Assembly: GCA_951406725.2 (NCBI GenBank)
Contig: OX597828.1
Span: 5,146,001-5,210,000 of the forward strand
DNA from: Octopus vulgaris
Taxonomy: Eukaryota
Direction of reading: 5' to 3'
Length of the DNA: 64,000 nt
Positions 14,195 to 60,783 of this stretch are shown here, in pieces. Numbering within the stretch: the stretch's first letter is position 1; each line of letters opens with the position of its first letter. Made by a program: the position numbers and the translations under genes. The notes beneath the pieces were generated by a model that ran no database searches, had not been told where the DNA came from, and saw only the letters and a list, made by a program, of their open reading frames with translations.

Positions 14195-15260
14195 ACCAAT
14201 GATTTTTCATCTATCGCGTAGACTTGCAAGGCCCCTCTTCTAAAATTCCATGAATATGTGTGTGTGTGTGTCTTTCTCTTTGTTGAGCGCTCTGAAGTAA
14301 AGCCAAGTTCTTTTGTATATAAATATGTATAAAAATATATGCGTGTGTCTTTATATGTGTGTGTGTGCGCGTGAGTGTGTGTGTGTGCGTGAGTGTATGT
14401 GTGTGAGCGTGTGTGTGCCTGCGGTGTTTCACAAAAGTAATTTCACAAAAGTAATTCTCCAGTACTGTTCTGACCTCGTCTACAGGATTCATATTTTTTC
14501 CATCCAAATGATTTTGAAAACTGCGGAATAAATGACAATCAGACGGGGCAATGATACAATCAGATGGTGGGTGGGGCATCATTTCCCATTCAAGCTGCTC
14601 AAGCCTTTGGAATATCATCCACGATGTATTTGACCGAGAATTATCTTGATTGAAGAATAACTTTCTTTTGAAACCAAAAATTGTCGTTTTCCTTCTAACT
14701 CTGACCTAAGCCGCTCACGCTGCTCATAGTAGATCTGCTTTGTTACCTTTTGGTTTAGGCTTAAAAGTTAAGAGTGGACTAAACCTTTCATATCCCACCA
14801 AACACCTTACGTGCGTGAAGATCTTCTTTAGCCTGGGGTGCTTACCCACTGTCTCCTTTCCCTACACACTGTCCTTTCCCTACGCACGGTCCTTTCCCTA
14901 TCCACTGTCTTCAGCGCATGGCACTTTTGTAGACCATTTTTGAGACCATTTCTCGTTACCAGTCACTATTCGGTCCAAATAATGTTTATTCGTCAGACGT
15001 GACTGCAAAGTAGATTAGACATTCACTCTCTGCGCGCGATTAGTCTTGGAAAATTTGTGAGGAACCGTTGACCCAATTTGCTGTCCATGAATGGTTGAAT
15101 GACCAAATCCAATTGAATGACCAATTCTATGCTAGTTCCTCCACATATACGACAGGGTTCTGCTTGAGGAACTCATCGTTGAGCTCTACAGATTTTCCAG
15201 AACGAGAATCGTCTATTAGGCTATAGTTTCCGGCTCGGAATTTCTGGAACGAATGCAGGT
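14195..15260 (-). mobile_element. Degraded mariner copy related to 4574-5861
   Basis: Minus-strand peptides FQKFRAGNYSLIDDSRSGKSVEL, VTGNEKW and LEWEMMPHPP..IAPSDCHLFRSFQNHLDGK. Interrupted by an inverted local copy at 14247-14435. Confidence 0.9.
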
Positions 15261-17773: not shown

Positions 17774-18297
17774 ATCGTGACGTATATTTGCCCTTTGAAT
17801 ATGGTTAACCCGTAAGGGTGGATGCTACTGTAGTTTGTAGCCCCAGGAAGACACCTCCTCCAGCTGGCTATAGACATACTTTCTGTGGCCTATCAGTATT
17901 TGTGAAGGGAAGTCATCCTTCCCGTCTTCAACTTATGATACACACGGACTCGAGTTTCAAGATATTGACCTATCATCGGCGTGTGACAATCATAGTTGTC
18001 GACGAGAAGTGAGTTTCCCTCACAAATACAAATCCTGTTTCCAGTATCGATTGACACTGATATTGAAAAAGTGAAATCAAACAATGATAAAGCGAGTTAT
18101 AAACAGTAGCGGTAACACATCGTGACGTATATTTGCCATTTGAATATGGCTAACCCCTGAGGGTGGATGCTACTGTAGTTTTTAGCCCCAGGAAGACACC
18201 TCCTCCAGCTGGCTATAGACACACTTTCTGTGCCCTATCAGTATTTGTGAAGGCAAGTCATCCTTCCCGTCTTCAACTTATGATACACACGGACTCG
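17774..18297 (-). repeat. 1.5 tandem units (345 bp period) carrying a type I hammerhead
   Basis: 17774-17952 is nearly identical to 18119-18297. HHR on the minus strand at 17941-17985. Confidence 0.85.
17941..17985 (-). ncRNA. Minimal type I hammerhead ribozyme (U4C core, GUC site)
   Basis: CACACG-CCGATGA-T-AGG-TCAATA-TCT-T-GAAAC-TCGA-GTC-CGTGTG: perfect 6 bp stem I and palindromic stem III ACTCGAGT. Confidence 0.8.
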
Positions 18298-18712
18298 GAA
18301 GATTCTGGAAGGACTGGTACCAAACTTTGAAATAAAAAGCTATATCAGACTACGAACAGGATGTCACTGTGCTGTCCCCCACTATAACGACTGCTTCATC
18401 TCTTCAAGGACGATGTACTGCAATAGCTTGGGTTTAAAGCGCCCACAGCTGTTTAACTCTCTGCCGAAGTATCTGAGGAGCCTGCATGCAGTAGATGTAG
18501 ACGTTTCCAAACGTGAACTTGACCTCTGGCTCGCCGAGATCCCGGAGGAGCCAATATCTAAGCAAAAAACTCAAAAGAGGGCAGTAACTTCGAGCTCCAT
18601 CCTTCACCAAAAACCGCTCCGACAAAGGTGGAAAGTGGAAATATGATCACAATGGCGGTGCTCCAGCATGGCCAAAGTCATTGGACTTAAACATATAAAA
18701 GAATAAAAGAAT
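18298..18712 (+). mobile_element. 3' end of a CR1/L2-group LINE
   Basis: Peptides KILEGLVPN and PQLFNSLPKYLR...KRELDLWLAEIPEEP are typical of the ORF2 C-terminus. Tail GGCGGTGCTCCAGCATGGCC then (AAAGAATA) repeats. Confidence 0.7.
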
Positions 18713-33790: not shown

Positions 33791-33990
33791 CGAGGTGAGC
33801 TGGCAGAATTGTTTGTACACCGGGCAAAATGCTAAGCGGCATTTCATGAGTCTTTACGTTATGTGGGCAAAATCCCCCAAGATCGACTTTGACTTTCATC
33901 CTTTCGGAGTGGACTAATTAAGTACGAATTATGTACGAAATAAGTACGAATTGTGCACTGGGATCGATATAATCCACTTACCCCGCACCC
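33790..33990 (+). mobile_element. SINE family B
   Basis: GGTGAGCTGGCAGAATTG...GTCGAC-like...CTTTCATCCTTTCGG. Confidence 0.8.
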
Positions 33991-34014
33991 AATTTCTAAC
34001 TATAGTATTATTTT

Positions 34015-35283
34015 TCTCCCTCATATTAATTTTTTCATCATTTGGAATTGTAAAATCAATTCTCTGACATTTTCTATTCTCTTTATCTAGTACTACTGAA
34101 TTGCGACTTCTAGCTTCTATTACTCTATCATTCTGAATATTAAAGCCCCACGACATCGTATATTTCTTACCGTCTGGTACTTTCCTAGGTTCATATTTAT
34201 ACCATTTATCAGAATATTCAAATCCTAATTTTCTACATAGCTCCCAGTGGTTTACTCTCTCTAGATTGTCATATTCTTTCTTGTATAATTTCTAGGCCGA
34301 CATGCTAAATTATCTTACTATATAAGTAACACTTTCCTCTTTTGATTTGCATAATTTACATTGGGAATCTACTTGGGTTTTGTCTATCTTGGCTTTTATC
34401 CAAGTAGTCCTTAATGGTTGATTTCGTACAGCTACTAACAGACTTTCTGTCTCCCTCTTCAGCTTTCCTTTCTGCAAACTTAACCATGTCTCGCTTTTAC
34501 AATTTTGATGCAACTATCCTTGGAAATGTACCATGCAACGCCTTCTCCTGCTAGTCAGATAATTTCTGTTCTTTTTTCTGGTTTTCAAGTCCGTCTGAGT
34601 TTTTGATATCCCTATGTCTTGCTGTGAATCTAGAAGCTTTTAATAAATTTTCTTCACTATTACCAACATACGAGTCTATATCAACTCTAGCTCCCTCTAC
34701 GCAGTCTTCTACTGATATTAACCCTCTTCCGCTTTCCTTTCAATGTAGGCATGATCTTTCTACTTCTGCCCTTGGATGGAGTCCTCCATTCATATTGAAT
34801 TCCTTCCTACTTCTATCTAGCTTTGCTATTTCAGTTTTTGTCCACCTACAGAAGCTGCTGAGCATCTAAGTAATGATACTGCCCGTGTCTTTACAACCTT
34901 CACTAGATTCGAACAATTTAACTTTGACTTCATTAGCTTCCTCACCTTTCTGATGTATTCGTTTTCAATTTTCGTTTTCATTTCTGTTGTCAGATTCTAA
35001 TACTCCTGTATACTCATAACTCTCTCCTCCTTTCAATGATTTTAATGTCTGGCTATCTGGTTATTGGACACCTTCACTGTTGACTACTTGTCCCCTTCTT
35101 ATGACTAATAATTCACGCTTATCTATGCCAAATTCTATGCCTATATCTTTGCTGAAGAGTCTTACAGTCTGTATTAAGGAATCTATCTCTTTTTCATTCT
35201 TACTAAAAAGCTGCAGATCATCCATGTAAAGTAAATGGTAAATTTTTCCATTACTATTTCTAAACTGATACCCTTCTTTTGCA
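34015..35283 (-). mobile_element. Dong/R4-like non-LTR retrotransposon relic (RT C-half, CCHC region, restriction-like endonuclease)
   Basis: HLLYMDDLQLF...IGIEFGIDK, LKRETESLLVA, CKLCKSKEESVTYI and IEAR...KCQRIDFTIP. The 5' junction abuts (TAA)n/(GAT)n. Confidence 0.85.
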
Positions 35284-35285
35284 TT

Positions 35286-35363
<78 letters not shown>

Positions 35364-35369
35364 CAAATA

Positions 35370-36103
<734 letters not shown>

Positions 36104-38827: not shown

Positions 38828-41128
38828 ATGTTTCTTTATTAGCCACACAGGGCTGCACACAGATAGAACAAATTACAAGGTAGAGCTTTTCTTTTGGGGG
38901 TAAAAAAAGGAGAGTGGTGGTTTTCGATCAAAAGGGATCGTAAAAGGAAAGAAAAAGGACAAAAAAAAGGGGAGGGGTTAAAAAAAGGGGGAGGGGAGAA
39001 AAAAAATGAATAATAGGGATCGTTATCACAGAAATGTCAATATGAAGTGTAAAGGGGAGGACAGGTGAGGTTTACCCGTGGAAAGAAAAGCCTACGGAAA
39101 AGACCACGGTAACCTCGGTCAATGAAGTCACATGTTATATTTTTTTTTTTTTTTTTTTTTTTTGCAAATAAGCAACTCTCTGTATTAATTTTTATGGTTC
39201 ATAGAATCATAGTCAAGGTGGCTTCGTTATTCATACGTGCCATCCTTGCTACATTCACCCATCTTTTTTTAAAACATTCACTAGACAAAACTTGCCTCTC
39301 TACTCTCACTTTCCTCTTCAAGTGATACTTGAAGAAGTTGATGAGAGATTGACCAGAGAGGAAAGTGTTTGTCTCTAATCCTTTCAGGCGCGTCCACCAG
39401 ATACATTCTTTCGCCATAGCCACAAGTATGATAAAAATAGCTCTTCCTTCCCGTTTGAAGGAAGGAGGCGTGACGATATTAACGATAGACTCGGCTGATA
39501 AACCGACACGTCCCACACGTGACAGCAGTCGTTCGACATAAGCCCACAGGTCGGAAATTGCTGGACACTGCACGATTGCGTGCAGAGCGGTTTCGTCGCT
39601 CTGACCGCATCTCGGGCAGGTCGGCCCCGTGTTTCTCGAGCCATGCCTATAGAGCTTATCCCGAACGGGTAGCGCTTCTCGGTAGCACCGCCAGGCCAGG
39701 GATCTCTGGAAGTTGTCCATAGGTCCCGGGCCGAAAGTCGTTTGAAACAGGCGGGTCAGGTATTCCTCGTCGACGCCCAGGTGTGCCCCGAGCTCGTCGT
39801 CGTACCTCCCCTCCACTAATCCCCTATAGAATGCTTTGGTTGTGTTGAAGTCACTCAAGGTCGACCCGGGACGGCAGAGTTGCTTGAGAGCAACGCGACA
39901 CTCGCGGTGCCAATCGCCCTTCCTCGGCCTCTTTTTGATCCACGACTGTAGTTCGGTCATGGAGACGAGTTGCGGGAATGCGTGCCTCACAAACGGCGAC
40001 CACACCTGTTCACCGTCGTCTACATAGAGCCGGAGATGTCGCAGTCTCAGCGCGTGTCTGCGCATCATCAACCACGGCATGCCCAGCCCTCCTTTTAACG
40101 GGTGTTGACAGCAAATGGATCGCCTGACCATCGGGACGCATCCTTTCCACAAGAAGCGGAAGAGAATGCGTTCTAGTTTGGTGATGGTAGGGTCGGGACA
40201 AGGTACGACGGTCAGGCGGTAGTAGATGATGGACGCGATGTACGCGTTCACCACCTCCGCCCGACCTTTTAGGGACAGTTTCCTCTCGGCCCATTGCTGG
40301 GCGAGAGTGACCACCCTACTCGTTATCTCGTTCCAGTTCTTCTCCATTTGGAGGTCCGGACCGAACCAGACCCCGAGCAACTCAACCGGGCCGTCTGTCC
40401 AGCGTCCCACGACGGAGGTACTGGTGGACGGCATGGGCTTGCTTCTCCAGGTGCCGAGCCGCAAGCCCACTGACTTTTCCCGGTTGATTTTTGCTCCTGT
40501 CACCGCTTCGTAGTCTTTCAGTGTCTCGCCGACCCGCTCGATGTGCTCGTGGCTTGACACTATGACGGTGACGTCGTCCGCGTATGCAGACACGCTCGTC
40601 CCGCATCCTAATTCTCGCGGGATGCCCCTCAGAGTCGCCAGCTTCCGCAGTAGTGGCTCAAGAGTCAATACGTATAGAAGCGCCGAGAGGGGGCATCCCT
40701 GACGGACCGAACGTGCAATGTCGAAGGGTCTCGATAGATGTCCATTTACGCGAATTACCGAACGGATGCCTCTGTACAAGGCAGCTATCCAGCCGCGGAA
40801 GACAGGACCGAAACCAGCCGCTCTCAGGACCGCCTCCAAGTATCCTACCCTATCAAAGGCTTTCGATTGATCCAAGTTGATCAGGACCCCACCCATGCCA
40901 GGTTTGTTAACTACCCTGTCTATCATGTAGCGCATCAGATGGAGGTTGTCATGGATGCTCCGGCCCGGCACAGCGCACGTTTGTGCGTTGTCGACCAGTT
41001 TCTCCATGACAAGCGCCAACCTCTTGGCTAACACCTTTGTCAAAATTTTCAGGTCTGCATTGAGCAGAGTGATTGGCCTAAAGTTATCTATAATGTTTCC
41101 CTTGTTTGGATCTTTCTTCAGCAGAGTT
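38828..41128 (-). mobile_element. Young 5'-truncated L1/Tx1-clade LINE inserted in a (GATA)n array
   Basis: GC- and CpG-rich open ORF2, about 370 bp 3' UTR ending AATAAAGAAACAT. Both ends join (TATC)n directly. Confidence 0.92.
39199..41043 (-). CDS. LINE ORF2 fragment: reverse transcriptase plus C-terminal zinc finger (endonuclease lost by truncation)
   Basis: 614 aa ORF with LDQSKAFDRV, VRQGCPLS, YADD, GGLG and CPRC...H....C. The frame continues upstream (NFRPITLLNADLKIL) to the junction near 41128, so there is no true start codon. Confidence 0.9.
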   Translation of the reverse strand: MTKVLAKRLALVMEKLVDNAQTCAVPGRSIHDNLHLMRYMIDRVVNKPGMGGVLINLDQSKAFDRVGYLEAVLRAAGFGPVFRGWIAALYRGIRSVIRVNGHLSRPFDIARSVRQGCPLSALLYVLTLEPLLRKLATLRGIPRELGCGTSVSAYADDVTVIVSSHEHIERVGETLKDYEAVTGAKINREKSVGLRLGTWRSKPMPSTSTSVVGRWTDGPVELLGVWFGPDLQMEKNWNEITSRVVTLAQQWAERKLSLKGRAEVVNAYIASIIYYRLTVVPCPDPTITKLERILFRFLWKGCVPMVRRSICCQHPLKGGLGMPWLMMRRHALRLRHLRLYVDDGEQVWSPFVRHAFPQLVSMTELQSWIKKRPRKGDWHRECRVALKQLCRPGSTLSDFNTTKAFYRGLVEGRYDDELGAHLGVDEEYLTRLFQTTFGPGPMDNFQRSLAWRCYREALPVRDKLYRHGSRNTGPTCPRCGQSDETALHAIVQCPAISDLWAYVERLLSRVGRVGLSAESIVNIVTPPSFKREGRAIFIILVAMAKECIWWTRLKGLETNTFLSGQSLINFFKYHLKRKVRVERQVLSSECFKKRWVNVARMARMNNEATLTMIL

Positions 41129-41130
41129 GG

Positions 41131-41762
<632 letters not shown>

Positions 41763-44657: not shown

Positions 44658-45047
44658 GATATGTATAAGTATGTACGTATTTCATTATATTATAAATCCG
44701 TGTCTCGAGTGAAAACTTATTCCTAAATAAGTATATCGAGAGTGGGTATGTGCTTTCAAATTCGACTAAAATATATCCATTATATTAACTCTACCCTTCT
44801 TGTAGATGTCTTGAAAGCATATATCTATATATGTATATATGATTATACTTACGAACACAGCCACCATACATATATATGTATATATACATTCATGTATAAT
44901 TACTTGTATATATGTGGTGCATATTTATATATATGCAGATATGTTTGGTTTTCGCTGAAACGAAAATAATTGCAGCGTGGAAGGTTTTTGTAAGCCATTT
45001 AAGAAACACACAAAAGCCGTTCGATTCACTTCAACATTTAAGTTTAA

Positions 45048-45097
45048 TTTGTCAAAATATTTTCGTCGCTAAAATCCGCGACCTGTTCACTGACAAA
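45048..45097 (-). ncRNA. Hammerhead-like motif with G3-C8 core (left arm)
   Basis: Reverse complement of 45738-45787. Confidence 0.65.
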
Positions 45098-45737
45098 AAT
45101 CCGTGCTGCATCTGAGAAAGTAACAGTTAGTTCGTCATATATATGTACGTATGTATGTGTGTATGTATGCATACACATATGTATGCATGTATGTATGTAT
45201 GTATGTATGTATGTATGTATGTATGTATGTATGCATGTACATACATACGCCTGTGTATGTATGTATGTATGTATGTATGTATGTATGTATGTATGTATGT
45301 ATGTATGTATGTATATATGTATGTGTGTGTATATGCACGCACATACACACTATAAACATAAAGCTATAAACCTGTAGTGATGGATAGATGTAGAGTGATA
45401 TTATTGTGATGAGTGGTCACTCTACATCTATCCATCACTACAGGTTTATAGCTTTATGTTTATAGTGTGTATGTGCGTGCATATACACACACATACATAT
45501 ATACATACATACATACATACATACATACATGCATACATACATATATACATACATACATACATACATGCATACACAAGCGTATGTACGTACATGCATACAT
45601 ACATACATACATACATACATACATACATACATACATACATACATACATGCATACATATGTGTATGCATACATACACACATACATACGTACATATATATGA
45701 CGAACTAACTGTTACTTTCTCAGATGCAGCACGGATT

Positions 45738-45787
45738 TTTGTCAGTGAACAGGTCGCGGATTTTAGCGACGAAAATATTTTGACAAA
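45738..45787 (+). ncRNA. Hammerhead-like motif with G3-C8 core (right arm)
   Basis: TTTGTCA-GTGAACA-G-GTCGC-GGATTTTA-GCGAC-GAA-AATATT-T-TGACAAA: 7 bp stem I, 5 bp stem II, palindromic stem III. Confidence 0.65.
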
Positions 45788-45864
45788 TTAAACTTAAATG
45801 TTGAAGTGAATCGAACGGCTTTTGTGTGTTTCTTAAATGGCTTACAAACACCTTCCACGCTGCA

Positions 45865-45901
<37 letters not shown>

Positions 45902-45936
45902 TTATGTATGCATGTATAGTTATATATATATATATG

Positions 45937-46004
<68 letters not shown>

Positions 46005-46028
46005 TTTGGATTTACTCCCTAATATTTC

Positions 46029-46068
<40 letters not shown>

Positions 46069-47135
46069 TATATGTAAGATAAGAACATCTTCAATATTAT
46101 TAAGATTAATTTCATTAAGATTTCTTGAATGGTTGTAAAGTCTCAGACTAGGAATAATATAATTAGTGTTTTTTAAAATATTATTTCAGTTCTACTATCT
46201 GAAGAAGAAAATACCAGAGGTCCCGAAGATTATTTTGTGTTTTATACTTGCAATTTAAGCTTTTGAAATTTGTTGAAAGGTCTCGAAAAATGAACTAAGT
46301 TTAAGCTGAAGTTAAAATGTCATATGCAATACGTAGTGTGTTATCTGAATTTGCTTGCAAGAGGTCAATATTGTCAAAGTTTTACCGTCGAAATTTTACA
46401 TGTAGCATTTATGATAAATTAGCAAAAATAAAATAGCAACATGAACTGAATCGTTAATGAGATGCTTGCTTGTAGATTATTCTTGGTCATTGTGACCTTG
46501 CATATTTTTAATGTTGCATTATTTGGCATGTAGATTCGATTCTTATTTTAGTATTCAAGCTATCTGAAGATCACTTGCATATCAGGAAGCTACGTTTCAA
46601 TCCATTGTAGAATTTACGAGAATAAACACTTTCTTGTTCATTCTTTGTTTACTTAAAAGGAAGATGTTAAGAAACGAAACGATAAATTCTTCCATTGATA
46701 TGCTTTGTTTATATCATAACATATTATATTATCTCTCCGAATAATACAACTGTAAATTTCCGATTCCAATGGTTTGATCTAATGACTTTGAAATAAAATG
46801 GACTTATCATTAAAAATGGATAACGACAAATTTATTAGTAACAGCTAAGAGCTTCTTTCATGGCATCAGTTTGTGTTTTTTCCTGAATGCATTAAAGTAT
46901 TTTCTTCCCTCCCTTACACATGTATGCCAGCAATAAAAATTTGTTAATCAACACATTACGTAAAATACAACGAAGCATTTTCGACAATCGTGGCATTATG
47001 TTTCGTAGTGTTCGTTTCTTATCCAAACCCTTACTTCAAACGTGTTTTAATCAATATTATTTGCTTCGTTGTGATTTAAACCACATAATCGCGTTGATTA
47101 ACTCCATGGAAGGAATCTCTTTCTATGCGTATATA

Positions 47136-47219
<84 letters not shown>

Positions 47220-47499
47220 TGACGTTTTAGATAGTTATAAGTTTAAGTTTTGAAGGAAACACAGAACGGAATTAGGTCGGGAGCTAATAAGAGATAATAA
47301 TACTAGGAAATGCGTTTGCATTACAGGAATTGTTGAGAGTTAGTAGTTACGAATTACGAATTAAGAGCTAAGCATATAATGCAAACATTATAAATTTTGG
47401 AACACTTATTTGAGCTCGAAAAAAGCAATCAAAGCTATGAGTGGGATAAAAATATTATCATTCGTTTTTAAGACATTGATTGCTCAAAATATTTATATG

Positions 47500-47716
47500 G
47501 TGAGCGTGCTGAAAAGTTCCTGGCTTTAAGGATATCATGAAAATGCTGTTTCACAGTCCAAACTTCCGAGTTCTTTTATAGGGTTGAGAAAAACTGAAGG
47601 GCCGCTGCAATATGTGAGTGAATCTGGGAGGGAAATATGTTGAATAAAATCATAATTCACTGGTCCTCCTGCATTTAATTTTACCCCAAACCAGGACTTT
47701 TCAGCACAACCTCGTA
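47500..47716 (+). mobile_element. Mariner-derived MITE / internal deletion derivative
   Basis: Inverted ends GTGCTGAAAAGTTCCTGG and CCAGGACTTTTCAGCAC. Internal remnant KLKGRCN..NLGGKYVE* resembles a mariner C-terminus. Confidence 0.75.
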
Positions 47717-48599
47717 CGTATAGATAAGTTGCTGACAGAGGAAACGAACAGTTGTGGAGACAGTAGAGGCAAATACAGATTTATGGGTTTTTTAGAAACG
47801 GTAGATATTTTAATCTTAGTAAAGTTTTAAACTAGAAAACAGGCGCTTGAAAATGTATACGTGTGCTCATAGAAATTCTCTGACCACAAATATCACATTT
47901 TCGTAATACATTATTTCTACGAATTATCCCACTACAAATACATATTAAAAACACATAGAGACGCATATATATAGATGGATAGAATATATTGATTTCAAAT
48001 GTTGAAACAAGTCCACTAATTTCGGGGTAGGAGATAAATGAATCACATCAACCCCAGTAAAGATGGAGCTGTCTTGCGTATTTTTGCCTTGTGCTTTCGG
48101 TACGTATTATAGCTACCTGATTATGCATTCGTTAGCGATCCTTCTGACGAGCTACATATACCATTTTCATTTATTTGGTCATTAATAGCGTAACTCGAGT
48201 ATAAGCTTAACTAATTTTTTATTCACTCTAGTGTTTATTAGCAGCATGCGTTAAGGGTTAGAGTTGGGTTCATTTTTTCATGGTTTGGGTTTAACTGCCC
48301 TTTTTAGCATGCAAGAGGTCCTGTCAAGAGCCTTCTCTCTGTCTATAAATCTTTATACACACTTATTTATAAAACTATTTTGTCTTATGACTTATATTAA
48401 GCATGCAAACCACTGGTAATAAATCATTTTAATTTTTTACCCCCAAACTTATATAAATATTTAAATTTCTCCCCCGCTTCTAATTCTTAGCAGGCCGTCT
48501 TTCTCTCCGCCTCCTCCGCTGAATACAACCGCAGAAGGCAGCAGCAGCAGCGACAACGGCGGTCATCAGTCAAATTTCACACTTATATATATATATATA

Positions 48600-49208
48600 C
48601 TAGATTACCCGTGGCCCGTTAGGTCACATATATTTCAAGGGACCTTGAAAAACTCGGAAACCTGTGGTCCGATTTACGCGAAACTTGTTTTATTCTGTTT
48701 GTATTCACATTTCAATGGTACTTTACATCCAAAGTCCCTTCCCATTGTGTGCCGGTTTGGCTATTTATAATGGTACCTTAAACAACCACGTATCTCGGTA
48801 ACTCTTGCTTGGATTCGCGTGAAACTTGCTTTATTCCATTTGTATTCACAATGATACCTTAGTTTCAAAGTATGCACGTGTTTGGCTCTATTCAATTACA
48901 GTCAAGCACGCATATAAGCAAATACACCAGCAGGTAGTCATAAAGATACCTGAAAATGCTGCGTAACTCGAGAACCCATGGTTCCGATTTACGCGAAACT
49001 TGTCTTATTCTGCTTGTATTCCCATTTCAGGAGCGTCTTACTTTCAGAATATTTTAGCACTTTGCGTCGCTTTGGCTGTATTAACTTACAGACAAGCACG
49101 CACCCAAGCAAGCTCGCAAACAAAGCTCTCCAAGTGTTCCCAGTAAAGAGTAATAACTCCAATAATTCCAATAACTCCAGACAAGCACGCAAGCAAGCAA
49201 TCTCTGAC

Positions 49209-49225
<17 letters not shown>
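48600..49225 (-). mobile_element. Non-autonomous Helitron-like element
   Basis: Minus strand ends GTGACCTAACGGGCCAC (hairpin) GGGTAATCTAG then T. (GCTT)n near the 5' end; three internal repeats GATT..CG.GAAACTTG..TTATTC at about 48670, 48812 and 48985. Confidence 0.65.
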
Positions 49226-49239
<14 letters not shown>

Positions 49240-49523
49240 ATTTCAACAATTGAGGGTAAAATTAATTAATTATTAATCAATTTCACCAAGTGTTCAGTAT
49301 GCAAAGGGACCATTTAAGGCGAATTCAAATTATTACATTATATAAAAGGGCTTAGTAAAATAAATTACTTTGCCGCATACTGAACTCATTAGAAATAGCA
49401 GCTAAAAAACTTTTTTAAAGCTATTTCTAATACTTAAAGAAAATCTCTCTCATTTAGTGTTTGCTTAACTCAACTCACAAAAGTTTGGGGGTAAGGACAT
49501 CAAAAAATCAAATGCAAAGGTTA

Positions 49524-49580
49524 TTTGAGAACGTACGTTTCAAGATTAGTCAATACGACACTTCTATCATCAGCTCAGAA
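49524..49580 (-). ncRNA. Type I hammerhead ribozyme, copy 1
   Basis: TGAG-CTGATGA-TAGAAGTGTCGTATTGACTAATCTT-GAAAC-GTAC-GTT-CTCA; stem III palindrome ACGTACGT. Confidence 0.8.
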
Positions 49581-50084
49581 ACTCCTTGGTTTGGATTTGA
49601 AAACACTGAAAGTAAGAACATACCCTTTCGGCTTCTCATCGCTTTCGAAGATCTGCTCGTAACTAACAGTGCCTACAAACTCAAATAAGCAAGCGAAGAA
49701 TTTCTGTTCTCCCCTTTCCACCAGCGTGGGTTAAAATCATCAAACACTATGCTTATTTCGGTAAAATCCGAAGCATTAATTAGAGGTAGATTAATTATAA
49801 TTTCAACAATTGAGGGTAAAATTAATTAATTATTAATCAATTTCACCAAGTGTTCAGTATGCAAAGGGACCATTTAAGGCGAATTCAAATTATTACATTA
49901 TATAAAAGGGCTTAGTAAAATAAATTACTTTGCCGCATACTGAACTCATTAGAAATAGCAGCTAAAAAACTTTTTTAAAAGCTATTTCTAATACTTAAAG
50001 AAAATCTCTCTCATTTAGTGTTTCCTTAACTCAACTCACAAAAGTTTGGGGGTAAGGACATCAAAAAATCAAATGCAAAGGTTA

Positions 50085-50141
50085 TTTGAGAACGTACGTT
50101 TCAAGATTAGTCAATACGACACTTCTATCATCAGCTCAGAA
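50085..50141 (-). ncRNA. Type I hammerhead ribozyme, copy 2
   Basis: Same sequence as copy 1. Confidence 0.8.
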
Positions 50142-50550
50142 ACTCCTTGGTTTGGATTTGAAAACACTGAAAGTAAGAACATACCCTTCAGTATGCGGCA
50201 AAGTAATTTATTTTACTAAGCCCTTTTATATAATGTAATAATTTGAATTCGCCTTAAATGGTCCCTTTGCATACTGAACACTTGGTGAAATTGATTAATA
50301 ATTAATTAATTTTACCCTCAATTGTTGAAATTATAATTAATCTACCTCTAATTAATGCTTCGGATTTTACCGAAATAAGCATAGTGTTTGATGATTTTAA
50401 CCCACGCTGGTGGAAAGGGGAGAACAGAAATTCTTCGCTTGCTTATTTGAGTTTGTAGGCACTGTTAGTTACGAGCAGATCTTCGAAAGCGATGAGAAGC
50501 CGAAAGGGTATGTTCTTACTTTCAGTGTTTTCAAATCCAAACCAAGGAGT

Positions 50551-50607
50551 TTCTGAGCTGATGATAGAAGTGTCGTATTGACTAATCTTGAAACGTACGT
50601 TCTCAAA
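50551..50607 (+). ncRNA. Type I hammerhead ribozyme, copy 3 (inverted arm)
   Basis: Same sequence on the plus strand. Confidence 0.8.
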
Positions 50608-50765
50608 TAACCTTTGCATTTGATTTTTTGATGTCCTTACCCCCAAACTTTTGTGAGTTGAGTTAAGCAAACACTAAATGAGAGAGATTTTCTTTAAGTA
50701 TTAGAAATAGCTTTAAAAAAGTTTTTTAGCTGCTATTTCTAATGAGTTCAGTATGCGGCAAAGTA

Positions 50766-50850
<85 letters not shown>

Positions 50851-51009
50851 GCTCCTTTTCATTTTCATCTTCTCTAGACAGTTTCCAGTTTCCCTGTATC
50901 CGATGAAGAGCCATGTCGAAAACTCATTTCTGTTGATATTTTTCTAATTCTATCTAAACTTTCACTGAGCGTCAATCTAATATATTGGCTGTAAACGTGT
51001 CTAATTGAA

Positions 51010-52358
51010 TGAGTGTGTCCAGAAAAGTACAGTGCTTGCGTTGATGGTGACTGGAAGGACAACACTTATAATGAAAGATAGAAGAAAGGGGAATATTGTG
51101 GGAAACTACCGTCCCATACCATGCCTAAACATAATCTGGAAGATACACAGTGGAATATGTGCGTCTAAGACATACCTTCCTGGAACAGGATGAAATACTA
51201 CCAAGATAACAAAAAGGATGTAGGAAGAGTTCTTAGAGTACTAAGGATCACTTGGTCATCGATAAAATGTTTTGAGGCATTGTTATAAACATCATACGAA
51301 CATGTCTATGGTTTGGTTTGACTTTAAGAAGCCATATGATATGATGCCTCATTCTTGGATCGTTGAATGCCTGCACAATGTTTGGTGTTGCTGAAAACAT
51401 CACGGATTTTCTGATATATAGCATGAAATAGTGGAAAACCAAATTGTACTTAAGTAATGTATTCCTTTGAGAAGTTAATATTAAAATGGTAATCTTCCAA
51501 GGTAACTCGTTTTCTCTGTTACTTTTTTGTAATTGCACTAATACCCATAACGATGACACTTAGAAAAGTTAAGATGGGTTACCGATGTTGTATGAAAGGC
51601 CCATCATTGAACTGCTTGATATTCCTTAGCCAAAAACAGTCCAGATATGTGGTAGAGAGATCGGTATGGAATTTGAGATTAGCAAATGCTCAGTACTTAA
51701 TATGAAAAGAGGGAAGAAAGCATCCTGCATAAGATTACGGTTACCATCAGGAGAGACCATGGTTGAACCAGACGGTAGTGTGTATAGATATTTAGGGATT
51801 TTGGAGCTACACAGAGAAATGAAAGTCAAGGTCAGCGAGGCGTATAAAAAAAGTGAAAATGATGTTGAAATCCAACCTAAATGCCAAATGGCATTACTGC
51901 AATGAATATCTGGGCAGTTATGGAGGTCAGATAGGAAATATCAACACTAGATGGGAGGAAGAGAAAGTTGATGACGCTGCATGGGGCGCTACACTCTAAA
52001 GCAAACGTAAACAGATTGTATATGAAAGGAAATAATGGTGGCAGGGGACCAATTAGTATAGACCATTGTATAAGGAACGAAAGGTGAACGCTTGCCGACT
52101 ATTTGATAAATAGTGATGAAAATCTGCGGCAATATGCCGCGAAAGATATAGGTGTAAATGCAGATGAAATGATTGGCAAGGAAGAGTTTAACCAAAGAGC
52201 TGAATAGAAGAGAAAAGACGACCTTCTTGAAATGAGAATGCATTGACAGTTTGAAAGGAATACACAGGACGTTAAGGATAATACAACATCGTGGGTATGG
52301 CTTGAGCGAGGTGATTTGAAGCGTACCACTGAAAGCCTGATCATTGCTGTACAAGATG
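51010..52358 (+). mobile_element. Second Dong/R4-like LINE RT relic
   Basis: GRTTLIMKDRRKGNIVGNYRPIPCLNIIWK, GIFQG-like IFQGNSFSLLLF, IGMEFEISKC, YRYLGILE and WLERGDLKRTTESLIIAVQD. Confidence 0.85.
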
Positions 52359-52387
52359 CACACATATGTGTGTGCGTGCGTGCGTGC

Positions 52388-52419
<32 letters not shown>

Positions 52420-52908
52420 AGTAGTAGTAGTAGTAGTAGTAGAAATTATCTGCTAGCCCTCTAGCTTGACTATTGCGAATAATATTGTTTACAAAATAAG
52501 CGAAATACAAAGCATAATAAATATTCGATTTCCGAGGTTTTGGTCAAGAAACAACTCACCTTTGTGCTTAGGATTAACTTATAGCTAAAAATTGATTTGC
52601 GTTCTGCGACAGCTGCTTCTGATTATATGCATGCATGCATGAAAGTATACATGTATATATCTATGTATGTAAGGAGAGAAATGTGAGGCAGTAAACGAAA
52701 TGGTCACATTTTCCTCTAACCGGTTTGTCATAATTGATCTTTTGCTCGCTCTGTCAATAGTGAGATGTAGATCTACAGAAATGATGGTGTCTACTCAAAG
52801 TGGTCGGTGTTTATACAATATTTTGGACTTCTCTATCGTTTCTGGCTTCGTTCTGTCATGTCTGGATGTCCATGTGTTCGAATGTTAATATACTGAAATT
52901 AGCGTCAA

Positions 52909-52946
<38 letters not shown>

Positions 52947-53067
52947 GCATGTATATAAGACGGGCTTCTTTCAGTTTCCATCTACCAAATCCACACACAA
53001 TACTTTCGTCGGTGTAAAGATATATAGAAGACACCATATGGATATATATATATATATATAGAGAGAG

Positions 53068-53114
<47 letters not shown>

Positions 53115-53361
53115 CAGATAGATAGATAGATAGATAGATATAGATAGATAGATAGATAGATATAGATAGATAGATAGATATAGATAGATAGATAGATATA
53201 GATACATATAGATATATATATATATAATAATTTGTAATTATATACATACTTACGACTAGGGTTCGGCTTCCACCTGTCTCTTCTATGCATATATATATAT
53301 ATATATATATGCATGTATGCATACTTAGACACACACACGCACACACACACACACAAACACA

Positions 53362-53440
<79 letters not shown>

Positions 53441-54096
53441 TATTTATATTATTATTTGATTGAACGTCACGCATCCAGTTCCAAGTAACTTTATCTTAAT
53501 CTTTTTGATGCGACTCTACTCTATACTATTTTCTCTCCCATCTTTTTCTCCCCTTCACCGTCTTCTATCTGTCGCTCTCTCTCTTCCCTCCTTCCTCTCT
53601 CTCTCTCTTTCTGGCATTGCTCACACGTGACTCTCGTACATTTTTCGTATCCTCACGTGATCGTCGTACTTCTCCTTCAAGACTGTACAAAACACTGGAC
53701 GCATTCTCCCTCTCACTTCTATCTTGTCTCTTTTCAACGAAAACATTTCTCCAACATTCGCTATTTTAACCTCGTCCTGGTCTAACGACCGTCCATGTTC
53801 GTTTTCGTTCGGCTTCCTTGTACGTCTCCAATGTCCTGTTTTTGTTTCCAACTTTGATCCTCCATAAATCCAAAATTTTATTTTGGTACTTATGGGAGTA
53901 ACTGTCGTCGAAGACTCATATTGTCGTTGAATGTTTGAAATGAAGGGTAGATAGACAGCCGAGATCTGATGAAGGGTCGATCTTTATGTTACTCTTCCTG
54001 TTTTCCGTTCGTTTCTCTCGTTGCTTGCGTATTGAACTCATTTGTTTTCGTATTTCATATTGTTTAATGTTGGCGACGTCCTGTATCCATATATGC

Positions 54097-54178
<82 letters not shown>

Positions 54179-54749
54179 TCACACACAATGCATGTATACA
54201 TTTATACGTACTTAACTATATCCTAATAAACATTTTGTATTTTTTGAATGATCTAATATAAACTCTTTGGAAATAAGTTTAAACTTTTCTACTCTAAAGG
54301 TTAATCTGAAACCAATGCATTCTTTCAATGCATACTACAAACTTACTTTCATGACTGTAATTGAGATTTAACATTTAAATTGAGCAACACATAATTGTTT
54401 TTATTGATTGAGTAAATTACATTGCATTCGAATAAAAAAAAATTTTCTTGCTCAAGATATGAAGGTCGGTCACTGATTATGCTTTTCTTTAGCGAATTAA
54501 CCTTACAAACTTAATTCCTACAATTACCAATCAATTTACCCGAATTATAATACAAACTCGTACTTGCCCAAGTGTAACATCTGCTTTCCTCAGGTATGTA
54601 TTATTAAAGAACAATGTAAAAGTATCTGAAATTAGTTAAGTTTCTCAGTATAATTTTCTACTAAATTCATTTTTTTTTAAATGCATGTTTAACTTGTCAT
54701 ACTGGTTTCAAATATTGCTTTAACTTAAAATATTAAAACATCACTCAAT

Positions 54750-54952
54750 GGGATGAGTTGGCAGAATAGTTAGCACGCCGGTCAAAACCCATAGCGGCAT
54801 TTTATCCGTCTTTACGGCCTGGTTTCAAATTATGCCGAGGTCCACTTTGATTTTCATCCCTTCGGCGTCGATAAAATAAGAATTAGCTGGAGTTCGTTTT
54901 CATTGACTTATCTCTCTCTAGGAATTGCTGACCTTGTGCCAAAATTTGAAAC
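54750..54952 (+). mobile_element. SINE family B
   Basis: GAGTTGGCAGAATAGTTAGCACGCCGG...TTCAAATTATGCCGAGGTC...TTCGGCGTCGATAAAATAAG. Confidence 0.8.
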
Positions 54953-57780
54953 CCATATTATAGCATCTCTCGTGATGAAACGACTCCGATGTTTTACTAT
55001 TTGTACTATTTTCTGATCCTGTTGATACTGTATACGCTGTGTTATTTGATATCTATTTAAAAGTGGAACGCTGCATATACAAAATCAATGCATAAAGACA
55101 GTTATCTAATTTCTATTTCAGTTGAACCGACTTTATGGAACCAATTATTCACAAAATTACATTTCTTTCGTAGACATTGTCATTGTAATATCGCGTGTCC
55201 CAGCATGGCCGCAGTGAAATATCTGAAACAAGGAAAAGTATGAAAGAATAAATGAATAACGTTAAATTGCATATAATCGTAAGTCACTCGTAAATCCGAG
55301 CTACTGTTATTCGTCTTCGAATCATATGATGAGAAATACATTGTATATTTAGTGGACGATGTCACATTTCTTTAGATTAATTCAATTATATGAAGTAACA
55401 TTATGAATGGAGGAAACCGGATTATATCTTCGAAATAAATAGTGTTGCGAAAACTGAGACAATTAGTCTTCATAAGAAAGTCTTCCCCCGTGCACTCTGC
55501 ATGTTAGATAATCTCTGTGACAAGTGAAGACGTTTAACTATCACGGAGCTATATTCACATATGATGAGAAATAGGAAGCTGAGTCGGATGCTATACCTGC
55601 AGATGGGAACGCAGTAATACGCCAGCTTCACCATTTGATCCTCAGGACACGAGAGGTTCGCAAAAATCCTAAAATTAATATCTTCGATAATGTTTTCGTG
55701 CTTGTCCCCACATATGGTGAAGAATGTTAGGCAATGACTAAAAGCGTACAGTGGCGAATATAGATCGCTAAAATGAAGTTCCTCTCGAAGATCTCTTGTG
55801 TAACGTTACTCGACAATTTAACGAATTTTTCCACTTCGAAGTGGCACATTCTCCTTGAGGCGTTTCAACTCCGATACTACTAACATGTGCTTAAAATGTC
55901 GCAGGAAGAAATAACTAGGCTGATGCTTCATGTCAAGCAAATTGACAGAAACCCTACTGGGTATATTATCAAAAAACAAGATTGTTGGTTAATATGTATA
56001 ATCTCAGTTGTTCACATTTAGGAATCTAACGGGTAAAAGTAATGACGATTGCTTCCGATAGGACTCTATACGGGAGGTTCCTGATAACGACCCTTCCTGG
56101 AGTTGGCAGAAAATAGAGGGATGCATGGATGAATGGACGGACGGACGGATGGACTGATGGATGGATGGATGGAGTAACGGATTTTGTGTTATATTTCGTA
56201 TGCTTTAAATTCAACCGCAAAACCTCCTACGGTTTACCCACATAAAGAAATTAATAGCAACTGTTGAATGCTAGAAATACTTATATGCCATAATAAACCT
56301 CAATAACAATATTTTAAAGCACGACTTCAAAATGAAATATAAAGATTGAAACTGCCCGCAGAAGTGGCAAAATACACAAGTCCTCGACCTAATATTTCAG
56401 ATATTAATATCTACTGAAATGATAAAGCGAATTATTACTGAACATTTAGAATGGTGACTGATTAATGATTGCAGAAAGTAGCTTAACGCATATTCAATCT
56501 CAAATCTAAAGTGTGCAAACGTTAAAAAATTAGAAGTGCGGCAATGTAGAGGGATAAAATGACATTTGTTTTTATTATCAAACTATATGGTTTCGTTTTA
56601 AAGGAAATACATTTATATCAGTTTATGGAAAAGAAAGTATATTCAAATAGAAATTATAAAATTATCATTTAAAAGTTCATTTTGGATCACTTCACATAAT
56701 GCTCCATTGAATATACACAGTATAATTGCCAAATGAGAACAGTAATTATTGTTTTCAATACATTCAAGTATTATGAATATGATGTAGAGATAAGTGCTAC
56801 AGGGTTCTCAGGTTTTACTATCACAAATAGTTCTCTGCTGTATAATAATAATTATGTGTCATCTATCTCAAGCCTTCCTCAAATGTCGTTAATTTTCGAT
56901 CTTTCAAGATACTACTTCACATATTTCTCAGCCCCGGCTCAATAAAATCATTCACTCCAGGAACCTCGTAATACTTTTTGGCACACAATCCTCCCTCATC
57001 AGATTTGCATTCTTGTATAATTCTTCCAAGCACAAGTGAGTTGGAGAGCGCTACAGATAGGGCTGTTGAATTTGAACATCAATGCCAACAATATACCCGA
57101 GCTTGGTGAGTTTTCATAATTTATTGCTATTATCCCACACCTCTCCAGCTAATTAATGCAAATAAATTATATTGTTATGAATATTAAAAATTATTATTGA
57201 TTTTTAAAAATCTTACTGATAAAATGATTACTTGTTCAAATTAATGAGAAAACGATAATTAACAAAATTTAGAAATAAAGGATGAATAATATAAAAGATG
57301 ATGAAAGAAAGCAAAGAAATACATATTACAGTAAAATGAACAGATGAAAGCGGAAGCTGTGAAGGACTGCCATTAAGAAGTGTACAAAATTGAAAGGAGG
57401 TGAATGGATGATATTAAATTCTGAAAACATAAGTATTTTAACACACAGTATTCAATTTCTTTGTGAAAGGTATTGATCTGTGATATGCCATATCATTATT
57501 GTCTCAACAAGTATGTTAAATGTTACAATATAAATGTCTGGTATAAAATGAATCTAATTTTCGTAAATATAGCCAAATTAATATAACCTAGTGTATTTTC
57601 GGTTAATGTATGCAAAACAATGTATTTACGTATGAATGTTTGGTTATCTGTTTGCTGACATACATAAATACATACGCACACGCTCACACATACACGCACT
57701 CACACACTCGCACATACACACATACACACACTCTCACACTGGCGCGCGTGTATACATACATGTATAAATTCATATATGCA

Positions 57781-57837
<57 letters not shown>

Positions 57838-58739
57838 ATTGCATTATTGCACTGTTTCTTCCTCATCTCTCTTAGAATATATGTCTATGTCTGCGTGACA
57901 GTGTATTCTTGTATGTTTGGGCATAGTTATTTAGTATCTATTTAATCATACTGCCGACAGATGCTAAGTATGCAAATTCTGGCCAACCGTTAGACCTACC
58001 GTTAGGCCAACCGTTAGACCTTTTCTTTTTGCGCTCAATTTAGATAGATATTACGACAAGGTCTCTATAGATGTATGCTGCAGTTCAAGGGAATGGAGAT
58101 ATACAACTTTCTACATATAAAGGAACTATAAAATTTGATAAGGTTTTTCAGTATATGTGTTGGACATAGTTTTCTTTTATTAATATACAATGTAAATTGG
58201 TAGTATTAAATATATGTAGGCTGTTATAGTAACCATGTGAAACTATATAACGGGTTTAGTCACATAGGTTGTACAAAAGCTTTGAGAGAGGGAGTAAGAG
58301 TGAGAGAGAGAGAGTGTGAGAGAGTGTGAGAGGATGAAAAACGAATGAATAAGTCGTAATAACTACAGGTATTTTATGAACAAAAACGGACCGTAATTGT
58401 CGTTTGAATAGATAATTAGTAACTAAATATTACTGCTTGAAAACGCATATCCTAGGGTCCAGAGTAGTGAGTGCTTCAAAATCCTTCAAATTCTCTTATA
58501 AAGTAGAACTTAGTATTCCCAAATCTAAGTAATCGGAATGGTTGACTAAAATGTTCATCTTGCGGTTCGATGCATACTGCATCTGTTAACTGGAGTCAAA
58601 TGTCTGCGATGTACTCTCAAATTTGATGCAACACGTTAAAGTTGATATCTGTTAATAGAAATAATTTAAATAAGAGAGCATGATCACTATTTCCACGCTA
58701 GGGGATTCGTCTTATACGACAGGACAGTCAAACAATAGA

Positions 58740-59150
58740 ACCTATTGGGAAGATAACGCGTGAAATTCCACTTTCCTCGTAGACATGCTGTTAAAGCCGT
58801 CACAAAGACTACTATTTCTAAGCTTTATCATAGATGTACAACACGTTTTCTGCATTGTGCCCTCGCTGCAGTACAAATGTATATTCACAACATAACTACT
58901 CTTCTCTTCGGTGTACACAATAAACGGATTGGGATGGACTTGATCAGACCATTGCTAAAGAATACAAGGCCAAACATTGTTGGGCAGTATTATTCATTTA
59001 ACTCCATTAACTACCTTTCTTTCAATATTAATTTATATTGCTGTTGGACCAACCTCCCACTATACCAATTAACTTTACAAGGCACCAACATAACACACAA
59101 TATTAATGCGACTACAACAACCAATGAACACTAGAGCAACATCTGAAAGC
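58740..59150 (+). mobile_element. Possible very old Penelope-like RT remnant
   Basis: Weak resemblance of the 124 aa ORF (FHF..RH, SINYLSFNI) to PLE RT motifs; catalytic residues absent. Confidence 0.25.
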
Positions 59151-59782
59151 GCAACGCCTTTAAATCTTAAACCAATAGTTCGAAAATAATAGCAGTTTGT
59201 TTCGTATGTGCTTCAGGGGTAGCAAATTACGAGACATATTTTTTCGAAGTCGACTGAGATCTTCACGTAAAATTAAGATGATTGATATAACAGACCAGAT
59301 TAATCTACCCCGGATGTAATTTCTCACCCGAAAATGTCTTATTAAGAATATACTTAAATACTTACAAGTACGAAGTATATACTGTGCGAATGTAAAAAAA
59401 AATATGTATTCATGCATGTATATATACATACACACACTTATGGGCAAGTACTATTATATACATACATGCATACACACCAATATATATATGCACAATGTAT
59501 GTAGGATTAGATACATACATACATACATTAAGGCGATGTTCAAGCATGGCCGCAGTCAAATGACTGAAACAAGTAAAATGATAAAAGAATGTGTGCAGTG
59601 CATAAGATTATATGTATACATGTATATGAATGCATCGGTGCGCATCCGTGAATAAGTGAGTGTCTGCATACATATACATATATATATATATAACTACATA
59701 CACATATATACATGGATATACATACATATATATATATACATATATATACGTACAAGCATGCATATATATATATGTATGTATA

Positions 59783-59813
<31 letters not shown>

Positions 59814-59864
59814 CATACATATATATATATATATTTACACACACACACATATATATATATATGA

Positions 59865-59918
<54 letters not shown>

Positions 59919-60167
59919 CTAATAAGGGTGAAAAATTAGATATTAATTTAATAATAGCATCAATTTAACACCAAGTGGTTTAGCGCATAAAAACCAGGGA
60001 TACAATAAAAAATCATACTTAAATATAAGAGAGTCACCACTATATGGTCGACTCTAGCGCTAAAAATAGATCGGCTATAGTATTAGCCATTAAAAATTGT
60101 TTCCAAGGAGAATTAAGACAACATTTAACGTAAACGAGGCAAGTGAAAAACAACGAAAATATAGATT

Positions 60168-60244
60168 AACTCTGGACAATTGTTTCGCTATTAATGTAAT
60201 ATGCAATTTTACTTACACAACATCTATAGTTCATCAGCAGAATT
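60168..60244 (-). ncRNA. Type I hammerhead ribozyme with long stem II (left arm)
   Basis: Reverse complement of 60500-60576. Confidence 0.8.
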
Positions 60245-60499
60245 TGTCTAAAATACAATTTATTAAATCGCACGCTAAATTTCAACACAACGTCAAACAC
60301 AACGTCAATTTTTCACCCTTATTTGTAATTTTAATTATACTGCAATAAATATTTTATGCAGTATTCGTTTCCGGAAGTCTTATCGTAGTTGTGGCGGAGG
60401 AATTTGAATCATGACTGCCAGTACAATCGATTAAACCGTACGTGTGTTTGACGTTGTGTTGAAATTTAGCGTGTGATTTAATAAATTGTATTTCAGACA

Positions 60500-60576
60500 A
60501 ATTCTGCTGATGAACTATAGATGTTGTGTAAGTAAAATTGCATATTACATTAATAGCGAAACAATTGTCCAGAGTT
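60500..60576 (+). ncRNA. Type I hammerhead ribozyme with long stem II (right arm)
   Basis: AATTCTG-CTGATGA-A-CTAT...ATAG-C-GAAAC-AATT-GTC-CAGAGTT; stem III palindrome ACAATTGT, GUC site. Confidence 0.8.
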
Positions 60577-60724
60577 AATCTATATTTTCGTTGTTTTTCA
60601 CTTGCCTCGTTTACGTTAAATGTTGTGTTAATTCTCCTTGGAAACAATTTTTTTAGTGGCTAATACCATAGCGGATCTATTTTTAGCGCTAGAGTCGATC
60701 ATATAGTGGTCACTCTCTTATATT

Positions 60725-60783
<59 letters not shown>

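Follow-up and report, generated by a model that had tools for sequence, protein, structure and literature searches.

Three mirror-image stretches in a 64,000-nucleotide (nt) segment of the Octopus vulgaris genome (contig OX597828.1, positions 5,146,001 to 5,210,000, forward strand; hereafter the window, numbered from its first letter) are real insertions of three different, highly abundant families, and we are confident that these insertions were made by Penelope-like element (PLE) enzymes. Located near 45, 49, and 60 kb of the window, they are a real feature of mostly known anatomy, involving two apparently new retrozyme-like families (A at 49 kb and B at 60 kb) and one PLE family (C at 45 kb). 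The original prediction was of one class of palindromic elements with a hammerhead ribozyme in each arm. The palindromes and the outward-facing hammerheads are there; the single class is not, as the loci belong to three families and hold seven hammerheads, not six. Double-hammerhead palindromes do not stand as a new system. What the insertions share is a rule on their outer ends: nearly every two-armed copy has one full and one short end.

The rule was read across copies. The main set of family A was drawn in genome order from 2121 matches to an internal 18-mer, of which the first 100 fall into 49 loci on one contig (one further cluster, cut by a locus end, was left out); 32 of these insertions are two-armed and 17 one-armed. 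The predicted polarity, minus strand on the left and plus strand on the right, holds at all three window loci and in 32/32 two-armed insertions of the main set, as well as in two other family A sets (19 and 23), i.e., in 74 of 74 two-armed insertions. The outer ends of family A fall into two classes about 98 nt apart, full (unit position 560) and short (near 462), and 31 of the 32 two-armed insertions carry one of each, with no case of full+full or short+short (two-sided p 9e-10 for 31/31 versus one half). The other sets give 18/19 and 20/23; the latter contains a single short+short insertion and also several copies of one composite that are not independent of each other. In family B, where the offset is ~97 nt, the counts are 10/11 and 8/11; the first of these sets was chosen by tail motif and hence could not reveal short+short, and the sole "full+full" of the second (L032; L-numbers are individual genomic loci sampled in this analysis) is a classifier error, its arm continuing to position 39. 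Among diverging pairs of the coding families, full+short is found in 16/16 for C (one converging pair, L091, excluded), in 9/9 for E, and in the one readable pair of D, with tails of ~58 nt (C), ~30–40 nt (E), and ~30 nt (D). The flanks are (TA)n or TA-rich nearly everywhere, which bears out the proposed preference for TA. Most are pure (TA)n, and a screen of 106 family A loci for target duplications gave one clear 17-nt case (L208) and a few candidates of 14–15 nt.

In the window, the three loci are, as predicted, long inverted repeats without a reverse transcriptase (RT) open reading frame (ORF), the longest ATG frames having 111, 58, and 29 amino acids (aa) at 45, 49, and 60 kb, and their coordinates are close to those first proposed. 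The 45-kb locus, most of which is microsatellite, has inverted arms at 44968-45239 and 45596-45867 (99% identity) and at 45254-45398 and 45417-45561; its left arm extends as far as 44954, beyond the earlier limit of 44968. The arms at 49 kb (49358-49944 and 50187-50773, 587 nt) are 100% identical, and this locus combines an incomplete tandem of a 560-nt unit with an inverted arm and has three hammerheads. At 60 kb the element spans ~59915-60731, with arms at 60092-60301 and 60443-60652 (99%) and at 60015-60096 and 60650-60731. The 10 kb flanking the window on each side contain no match to families A, B, C, D, or E. The parts are as follows.

44954..45398, minus strand: left arm of family C, assigned to the 3′ end region of an autonomous PLE by its match to the 3′ untranslated region after the RT/GIY-YIG ORF (L076, L074, L063, L062)
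44954-44967, minus strand: 14-nt piece of the family C tail of ~58 nt, assigned from the tail classes
45048..45097, minus strand: family C hammerhead, type I minimal, with a G3:C8 core, stems I and II of 7 and 5 bp, and one additional nucleotide following A9
45399..45416, no strand: 18-nt spacer at the inversion centre of the 45-kb locus
45417..45869, plus strand: family C right arm with the short (tail-less) end, then (TA)n
45738..45787, plus strand: family C hammerhead, type I minimal, G3:C8 core, predicted cut after 45780 (fold z −3.5)
49236..49795, minus strand: full 560-nt family A unit, its full (tailed) end adjoining (TA)n at 49236
49236..49333, minus strand: family A tail of ~98 nt, with a 15-bp hairpin
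49526..49577, minus strand: copy 1 of the family A hammerhead, whose stem I has 4 bp and whose stem III is palindromic
49796..50188, minus strand: second family A unit in tandem, 5′-truncated (unit positions 169-560)
50087..50138, minus strand: family A hammerhead, copy 2
50187..50773, plus strand: inverted arm of family A, made of unit positions 412-560 followed by 1-438, then (TA)n; it overlaps the left arm by 2 nt
50554..50605, plus strand: copy 3 of the family A hammerhead, with its cut predicted after 50601
59915..60301, minus strand: left arm of family B, covering unit positions 114-500, with (TA)n at its full tailed end
~59915-60012, minus strand: family B tail within this arm
60168..60244, minus strand: hammerhead of family B with a 7-bp stem I and an inner hairpin in its long stem II (mirror of 60500-60576)
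60307..60731, plus strand: inverted arm of family B, made of unit positions 478-500 followed by 1 to ~403, with (TA)n at its short end
60500..60576, plus strand: family B hammerhead, predicted cut after 60569 (read from sequence, with covariation)

Families A and B are made of non-coding units of 560 and 500 nt, respectively, with one hammerhead each. The longest ATG frames of doubled units are of 58 aa (A) and 82 aa (B), and the GC contents are 33% and 31%. The units follow each other in seamless tandem, each with its type I hammerhead, as in retrozymes; arms of family A hold up to 9 units, and family B has mostly 1–2, with two hammerheads in 8/44 matched loci. The unit lengths exceed the 150–450 bp given for retrozymes in PMC7229834 (Cervera and de la Pena 2020), but lie inside the 51–972 bp of a 2026 preprint (10.64898/2026.07.22.740005). 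First-look candidates in the 2.8-Gb genome number 1362 for A, 2148 for B, and 1695 for C, and the tail motif has 4053 and 405 exact matches, versus 1 and 0 for reversed controls. The likeness between A and B is confined to the last ~60 nt (73%). The terminal motif noticed at both the 49- and 60-kb loci is indeed present, and it corresponds to the two strands of a long tail hairpin. That the tail might be a degenerate second hammerhead was rejected, since family B has no core there and the tail folds as a hairpin. A and B are apparently new families of non-autonomous, retrozyme-like elements. The proposed relationship with PLEs was right, and so, for these two families, was the proposed non-autonomous nature. 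Within the scope of titles and abstracts, the hammerhead and retrozyme literature on octopus gave no record describing them, although subscription papers and Repbase may hold one.

A search for the autonomous partner of A and B covered 90 loci from families C, D, and E, another three coding loci, and 30 loci with GIY-YIG; in this sample of the genome, no coding family has the A/B tail at its own 3′ end, which counts against moving these units by a PLE enzyme. The tail motif occurs in 3/90 coding loci (L159, L113, and L084). The first two were rejected as partners because the tail belongs to a separate neighbouring A or B insertion, and L084 because the A-like end is on the opposite strand. The motif is absent from the three further coding loci, and the 30 GIY-YIG loci show only two short AT-rich matches to the tail. 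Another 27 matches came from a variant of the tail pattern and were taken, going by their letters, to be variants of A; the two loci checked among them, L367 and L384, have no PLE ORF. A metagenome scan for the tail returned 2 chance matches within unrelated genes, and the motif was not found in the supplement of PMC8557442 as searched, where line breaks can hide a match. In L367 and L384, diverged relatives of the A and B tails lie close together, pointing to a possible larger group of non-coding units with a tail hairpin.

Family C is a coding PLE. Its terminal sequence lies directly downstream of an ORF with RT and, at its C terminus, a GIY-YIG endonuclease in L062, L063, L074, and L076. 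This coding partner, with 10,147 first-look candidates in the genome, has a YVDD motif and open frames of up to 1025 aa; the 1025-aa frame in L085/L283 carries YVDD and YQIKC...YIGET. The GIY-YIG domain of L074 matches Pfam at 24.2 bits (cut-off 22.6), and a 441-aa piece from L076 matched no Pfam family. Judging from these matches, the 45-kb locus is the 5′-truncated, inverted 3′ end of an autonomous RT/GIY-YIG PLE, and the ORF has been lost from this copy; the view of the locus as a non-autonomous element therefore falls, as it belongs to an autonomous coding family. Family C shows the single RT and GIY-YIG ORF, the hammerhead in the terminal repeat, the 5′ truncation, the adjacent inverted copy, and the tail on one arm that characterize endonuclease-containing (EN+) PLEs. 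PMC8557442 defines Neptune and Nematis by a CX2-5CxxC linker and a CCHH-type motif in the endonuclease. In family C the endonuclease carries IKC..C and HAVDCH, and the linker CQSNCAVC is at 896; in its linker and its zinc finger the family agrees with either clade, with a possible resemblance to Nematis. No named PLE reference is among the 120 homologues listed for family C. Other PLE families of this genome also have long frames. In family D (L141-L170, L286-L290), with a hammerhead core CCGAAGA and a tail of ~30 nt, 72/72 scored matches have 100% identity without stops, mostly in 775-aa frames, and by its sequences the family looks very recently active. In a further PLE family (L403, L408), open frames of 781 aa are numerous and the 3′ region holds internal repeats.

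A type I hammerhead descriptor run on the window gave 6 hits versus 0.13 expected from 15 dinucleotide shuffles (shuffle maximum 2). Five of these are in the 45- and 49-kb loci, and the sixth, at 63.6 kb, is a background hit. Both 60-kb motifs escaped the descriptor because their stem II is offset; they were read directly from the sequence and are backed by covariation over 40 family copies. In this alignment 93% of the cells are paired, and there are 37 compensatory cells versus 11.8 in shuffles, a value attained by 0/500 shuffles. Core and stems are conserved and covarying, the motifs look PLE-minimal, and the hammerhead of family B is, on this comparative evidence, under selection. The core of the 45-kb hammerheads is GUGAACA instead of CUGANGA. 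This G3:C8 swap is found in 90/95 family C segments (partly redundant), and in vitro a PLE ribozyme with the double mutation C3G/G8C keeps part of its activity (PMC11167929). Some results pull the other way: the family B covariation counts include shared descent, and the 6 pairs with two-sided changes are equalled in 25/500 shuffles; the family A motif alone shows no hammerhead fold (z +0.57) and is not free in the predicted circular monomer. No hammerhead family occurs among the 150 Rfam matches listed of a total of 210. To the right of the 49-kb locus, at 50890-50930 (plus strand), there is a degenerate hammerhead-like string, CCGAUGA ... GAAA, with a poor fold (z +1.5).

The original prediction noted that the minimal hammerheads of PLEs act as dimers. 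Pairing between two copies of the palindromic stem III is predicted at −12.2 (A), −7.8 (B), and −4.6 (C) kcal/mol, but the outward motifs lie on opposite strands, so that one transcript cannot pair both as a cis dimer, and in plus-strand read-through RNA the sense motif is predicted to be fully paired with the distant arm (36/36, 44/44, and 66/66 nt). A cis dimer could form only in tandem units, as in the left arm of the 49-kb locus. If a locus were transcribed through both arms, long double-stranded RNA would be expected from the predicted folding; its suggested use by ADAR or as siRNA is hypothetical. Assembled contigs of runs guessed to be RNA contain family A pieces and scattered other repeats, and bridge nothing locus-specific.

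How do the two arms arise? Each locus would be one insertion by a PLE RT/GIY-YIG enzyme into a (TA)n tract, both cut target ends priming reverse transcription on the same RNA (twin priming), one at the full end and the other at a start site ~98 nt (A, B) or ~58 nt (C) upstream. The enzyme would make a staggered two-strand cut in TA-rich DNA, the two start sites would flank an enzyme-bound tail hairpin, and the two complementary DNA (cDNA) ends would be joined with 0–7 nt of overlap or small gaps. The template of A and B may be a hammerhead-processed circular or multimeric RNA, copied in trans. The outward polarity of the hammerheads would then follow from target priming, and is uninformative as to a design with two ribozymes. 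Both arms derive from one template sequence, the median divergence across arms being 0.35% (48 insertions) versus 3.5% between insertions; full units differ by 0.18% both within an arm and across arms, and by 0.72% from the nearest unit elsewhere. Tandem units inside one insertion are seamless and near-identical. Such multimers would fit the rolling-circle copying proposed for retrozymes (PMC7229834), and a linear transcript of a homogeneous array would fit too, and between a circular and a linear multimeric template we regard the choice as evenly poised. In L202 and L207, alternate units have private variants in common (units 3 and 5; units 2 and 4), which hints at duplications of two units at a later time or at a multimeric template.

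Fold-back, the integration route of the original prediction, also copies both arms from a single template: a cDNA (or antisense RNA) folds onto itself and serves as its own template, its far end is resolved by the endonuclease at the other site, and the arms become unequal through deletions that occur afterwards at the palindrome centre. It is near the self-priming hypothesis of Arkhipova et al. 2013 (PMC3846280), where junction palindromes are read as self-priming, and the tail is attributed to endonuclease resolution in PMC8557442. Requiring that one arm be contained in the other, 18 of 30 simple insertions (one complex insertion excluded) can be templated from one arm, 15 from the full-end arm and 3 from the short-end arm; the other 12 can be built from neither, and hence pure fold-back, unless helped by an extra template or a one-sided deletion, does not account for them. 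Moreover, the longer arm may be either one (the short-end arm in 26/69), and the arms do not overlap in L175, L177, L183, and L274. Many hairpin junctions have a 0–3-nt spacer with little natural self-complementarity, which makes a poor primer; a natural 6-mer palindrome is at the centre only in L282 and L333. In one of the 48 insertions, L206, a 2-nt deletion is present in the two units of the left arm and in none of the three units of the right arm. We consider twin priming the better explanation, with modest confidence, because PLE protein nicks and extends both strands in vitro and initiates at two internal RNA sites (PMC11167929), matching the tail, and because a fixed rule of one end of each class needs coordination; fold-back with later deletion is the less likely of the two, yet a serious rival. 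Several observations pull against twin priming or its proposed template. Near-perfect hairpins, with inner ends within 4 nt, make up 15/69 junctions and are simply explained by fold-back; 4 of the 12 non-buildable insertions are borderline (15–21 nt) and 8 are clear; asymmetric deletion at an unstable palindrome centre could create all of the "not buildable" cases; and the inner-register variants common to both arms of L219 equally fit fold-back or later gene conversion. In the window itself, the inverted arm at 49 kb stops at unit position 438, 24 nt before the usual short end (~462). Inner ends show no peak at the predicted cut (10/181 in bin 261-280, neighbours 7–12), and there is therefore no genomic sign of cleaved monomers as templates, which agrees with circles or uncut RNA in that role.

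That the palindrome with two outward hammerheads is itself the mobile or functional unit, like a miniature inverted-repeat transposable element (MITE) or a ribozyme-bounded cassette releasing a hairpin RNA, is suggested by the window, where all three loci are two-armed with a hammerhead in each arm. One composite does recur: L193, L195, L323, L329, L339, L341, and L348 share an inverted arrangement of A-like pieces (328-459, 482-556) with the same junction, and therefore a two-armed product can be amplified secondarily; this composite has no hammerhead. Across copies, centres and lengths vary, and hammerheads per insertion range from 0 to 3 or more in A (n=49; none in 16, one in 9, two in 16, three in 4, four or more in 4) and from 0 to 2 in B (n=25; 11, 11, and 3). 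With 17/49 family A copies one-armed and 16/49 without a hammerhead, the palindrome with its two ribozymes is an insertion by-product and not, as had been claimed, the element, and the mobile unit is very improbable also given that two motifs on opposite strands are unable to act on a single transcript and would, by prediction, be sequestered. A MITE or foldback DNA transposon was rejected because the ends are unequal by rule, the centres vary, and one-armed copies are common. Perfect fold-backs are a known artefact of long reads, and no contig from other public runs covers a whole locus. Yet the arms differ in substitutions and microsatellite length, the ends follow a sequence-specific rule, and in contigs from the other runs loose (TA)n ends occur in both end classes (50335; 50234-50240), alongside many different internal joints, making read or assembly chimeras the least credible explanation, with next to no weight.

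Much of this is in print for PLEs: inverted head-to-head copies, the one-sided tail, (TA)n targets, and opposite-strand hammerhead pairs. The literature on EN+ PLEs reports 5′ truncation, partial tandems, an adjacent head-to-head inverted copy, and (TA)n targets that mask duplication (PMC3846280, PMC8557442), with a tail of 30–40 bp on one inverted arm (PMC8557442, Craig et al. 2021). The octopus families share all of these and the hammerhead in the terminal repeat, and C is a coding member. They differ by their longer tails, ~58 nt in C and ~98 nt in A and B, by the near-absolute one-tail rule, and by the lack of an ORF and of a partner found for A and B. Non-autonomous Chlamys PLEs are known (PMC8557442), and animal retrozymes as non-autonomous PLE derivatives are the topic of the preprint of Li, Clavereau and Pollet 2026 (10.64898/2026.07.22.740005). 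Like the metazoan non-LTR (long terminal repeat) retrozymes of that preprint and of PMC7229834, for which PLE mobilisation was proposed, A and B have non-coding, low-GC tandem units with one type I hammerhead and a palindromic helix III, and they share with the axolotl HHR_Amex2 a mismatch at the base of helix II; their cleavage and circles are predictions from sequence. Inverted two-armed insertions are not described in the main text of PMC7229834 or of the preprint, as judged by a term search ("inverted" is missing from one of the two and confined to a reference entry in the other; "tail" does not occur in the preprint). Dual minimal hammerheads 100–700 bp apart on opposite strands, probably from truncated PLEs, were reported by Cervera and De la Pena 2014 (PMC4209133). 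Compared with the minimal hammerheads of metazoan PLEs in that work, those described here likewise have an extra nucleotide between 9 and 10.1, a palindromic helix III, and a dimer architecture, but family C has a fixed G3:C8 core where U3-A8 was reported, and A and B lack the G10.1-C11.1 pair.

The octopus insertions resemble L1 twin priming in that both target ends would use one RNA, giving a head-to-head inversion with short homology at the junction. The L1 mechanism, reportedly set out by Ostertag and Kazazian in 2001, is said to have a variable second site and non-overlapping arms, unlike the fixed second site and usually overlapping arms here; overlapping arms therefore need a repeated or circular template, or strand displacement. 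In the literature searched, most subscription papers and Repbase aside, we found no statement of the strict end rule, of ~98-nt tails, or of twin priming in PLEs, nor, most subscription papers aside, of a long tail hairpin common to two otherwise unrelated families or of copies that fold-back alone cannot build.

Elsewhere in the window, a stop-free frame of 754 aa (39199-41463, minus strand) starts inside a microsatellite, and its later part presumably resembles the reverse transcriptase of a long interspersed nuclear element (LINE). Frames at 4888-5211, 14211-14705, 18284-18646, and 33929-35438 presumably resemble mariner transposase and LINE remnants.

The origin of tandem and inverted copies of PLEs is called an open question in PMC8557442, and the enzyme that moves animal retrozymes has so far been argued from co-occurrence and pseudo-LTR (pLTR) kinship. 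Tentatively, a PLE dimer seated on one ~98-nt tail hairpin might allot one target end to each of two fixed start sites and copy the same small circular, hammerhead-processed RNA from both, which would yield head-to-head arms of several units. The young, short, high-copy families described here offer a compact template for such work (500–560 nt, two fixed start sites around a hairpin), and one full plus one short end per insertion is a sharp prediction for the existing in vitro PLE assay. If true, the dimer would explain the inverted repeats and the one-sided tail of PLEs together, and would tie animal retrozymes to PLE enzymes through the footprint of insertion, with thousands of insertions recording the integration step.

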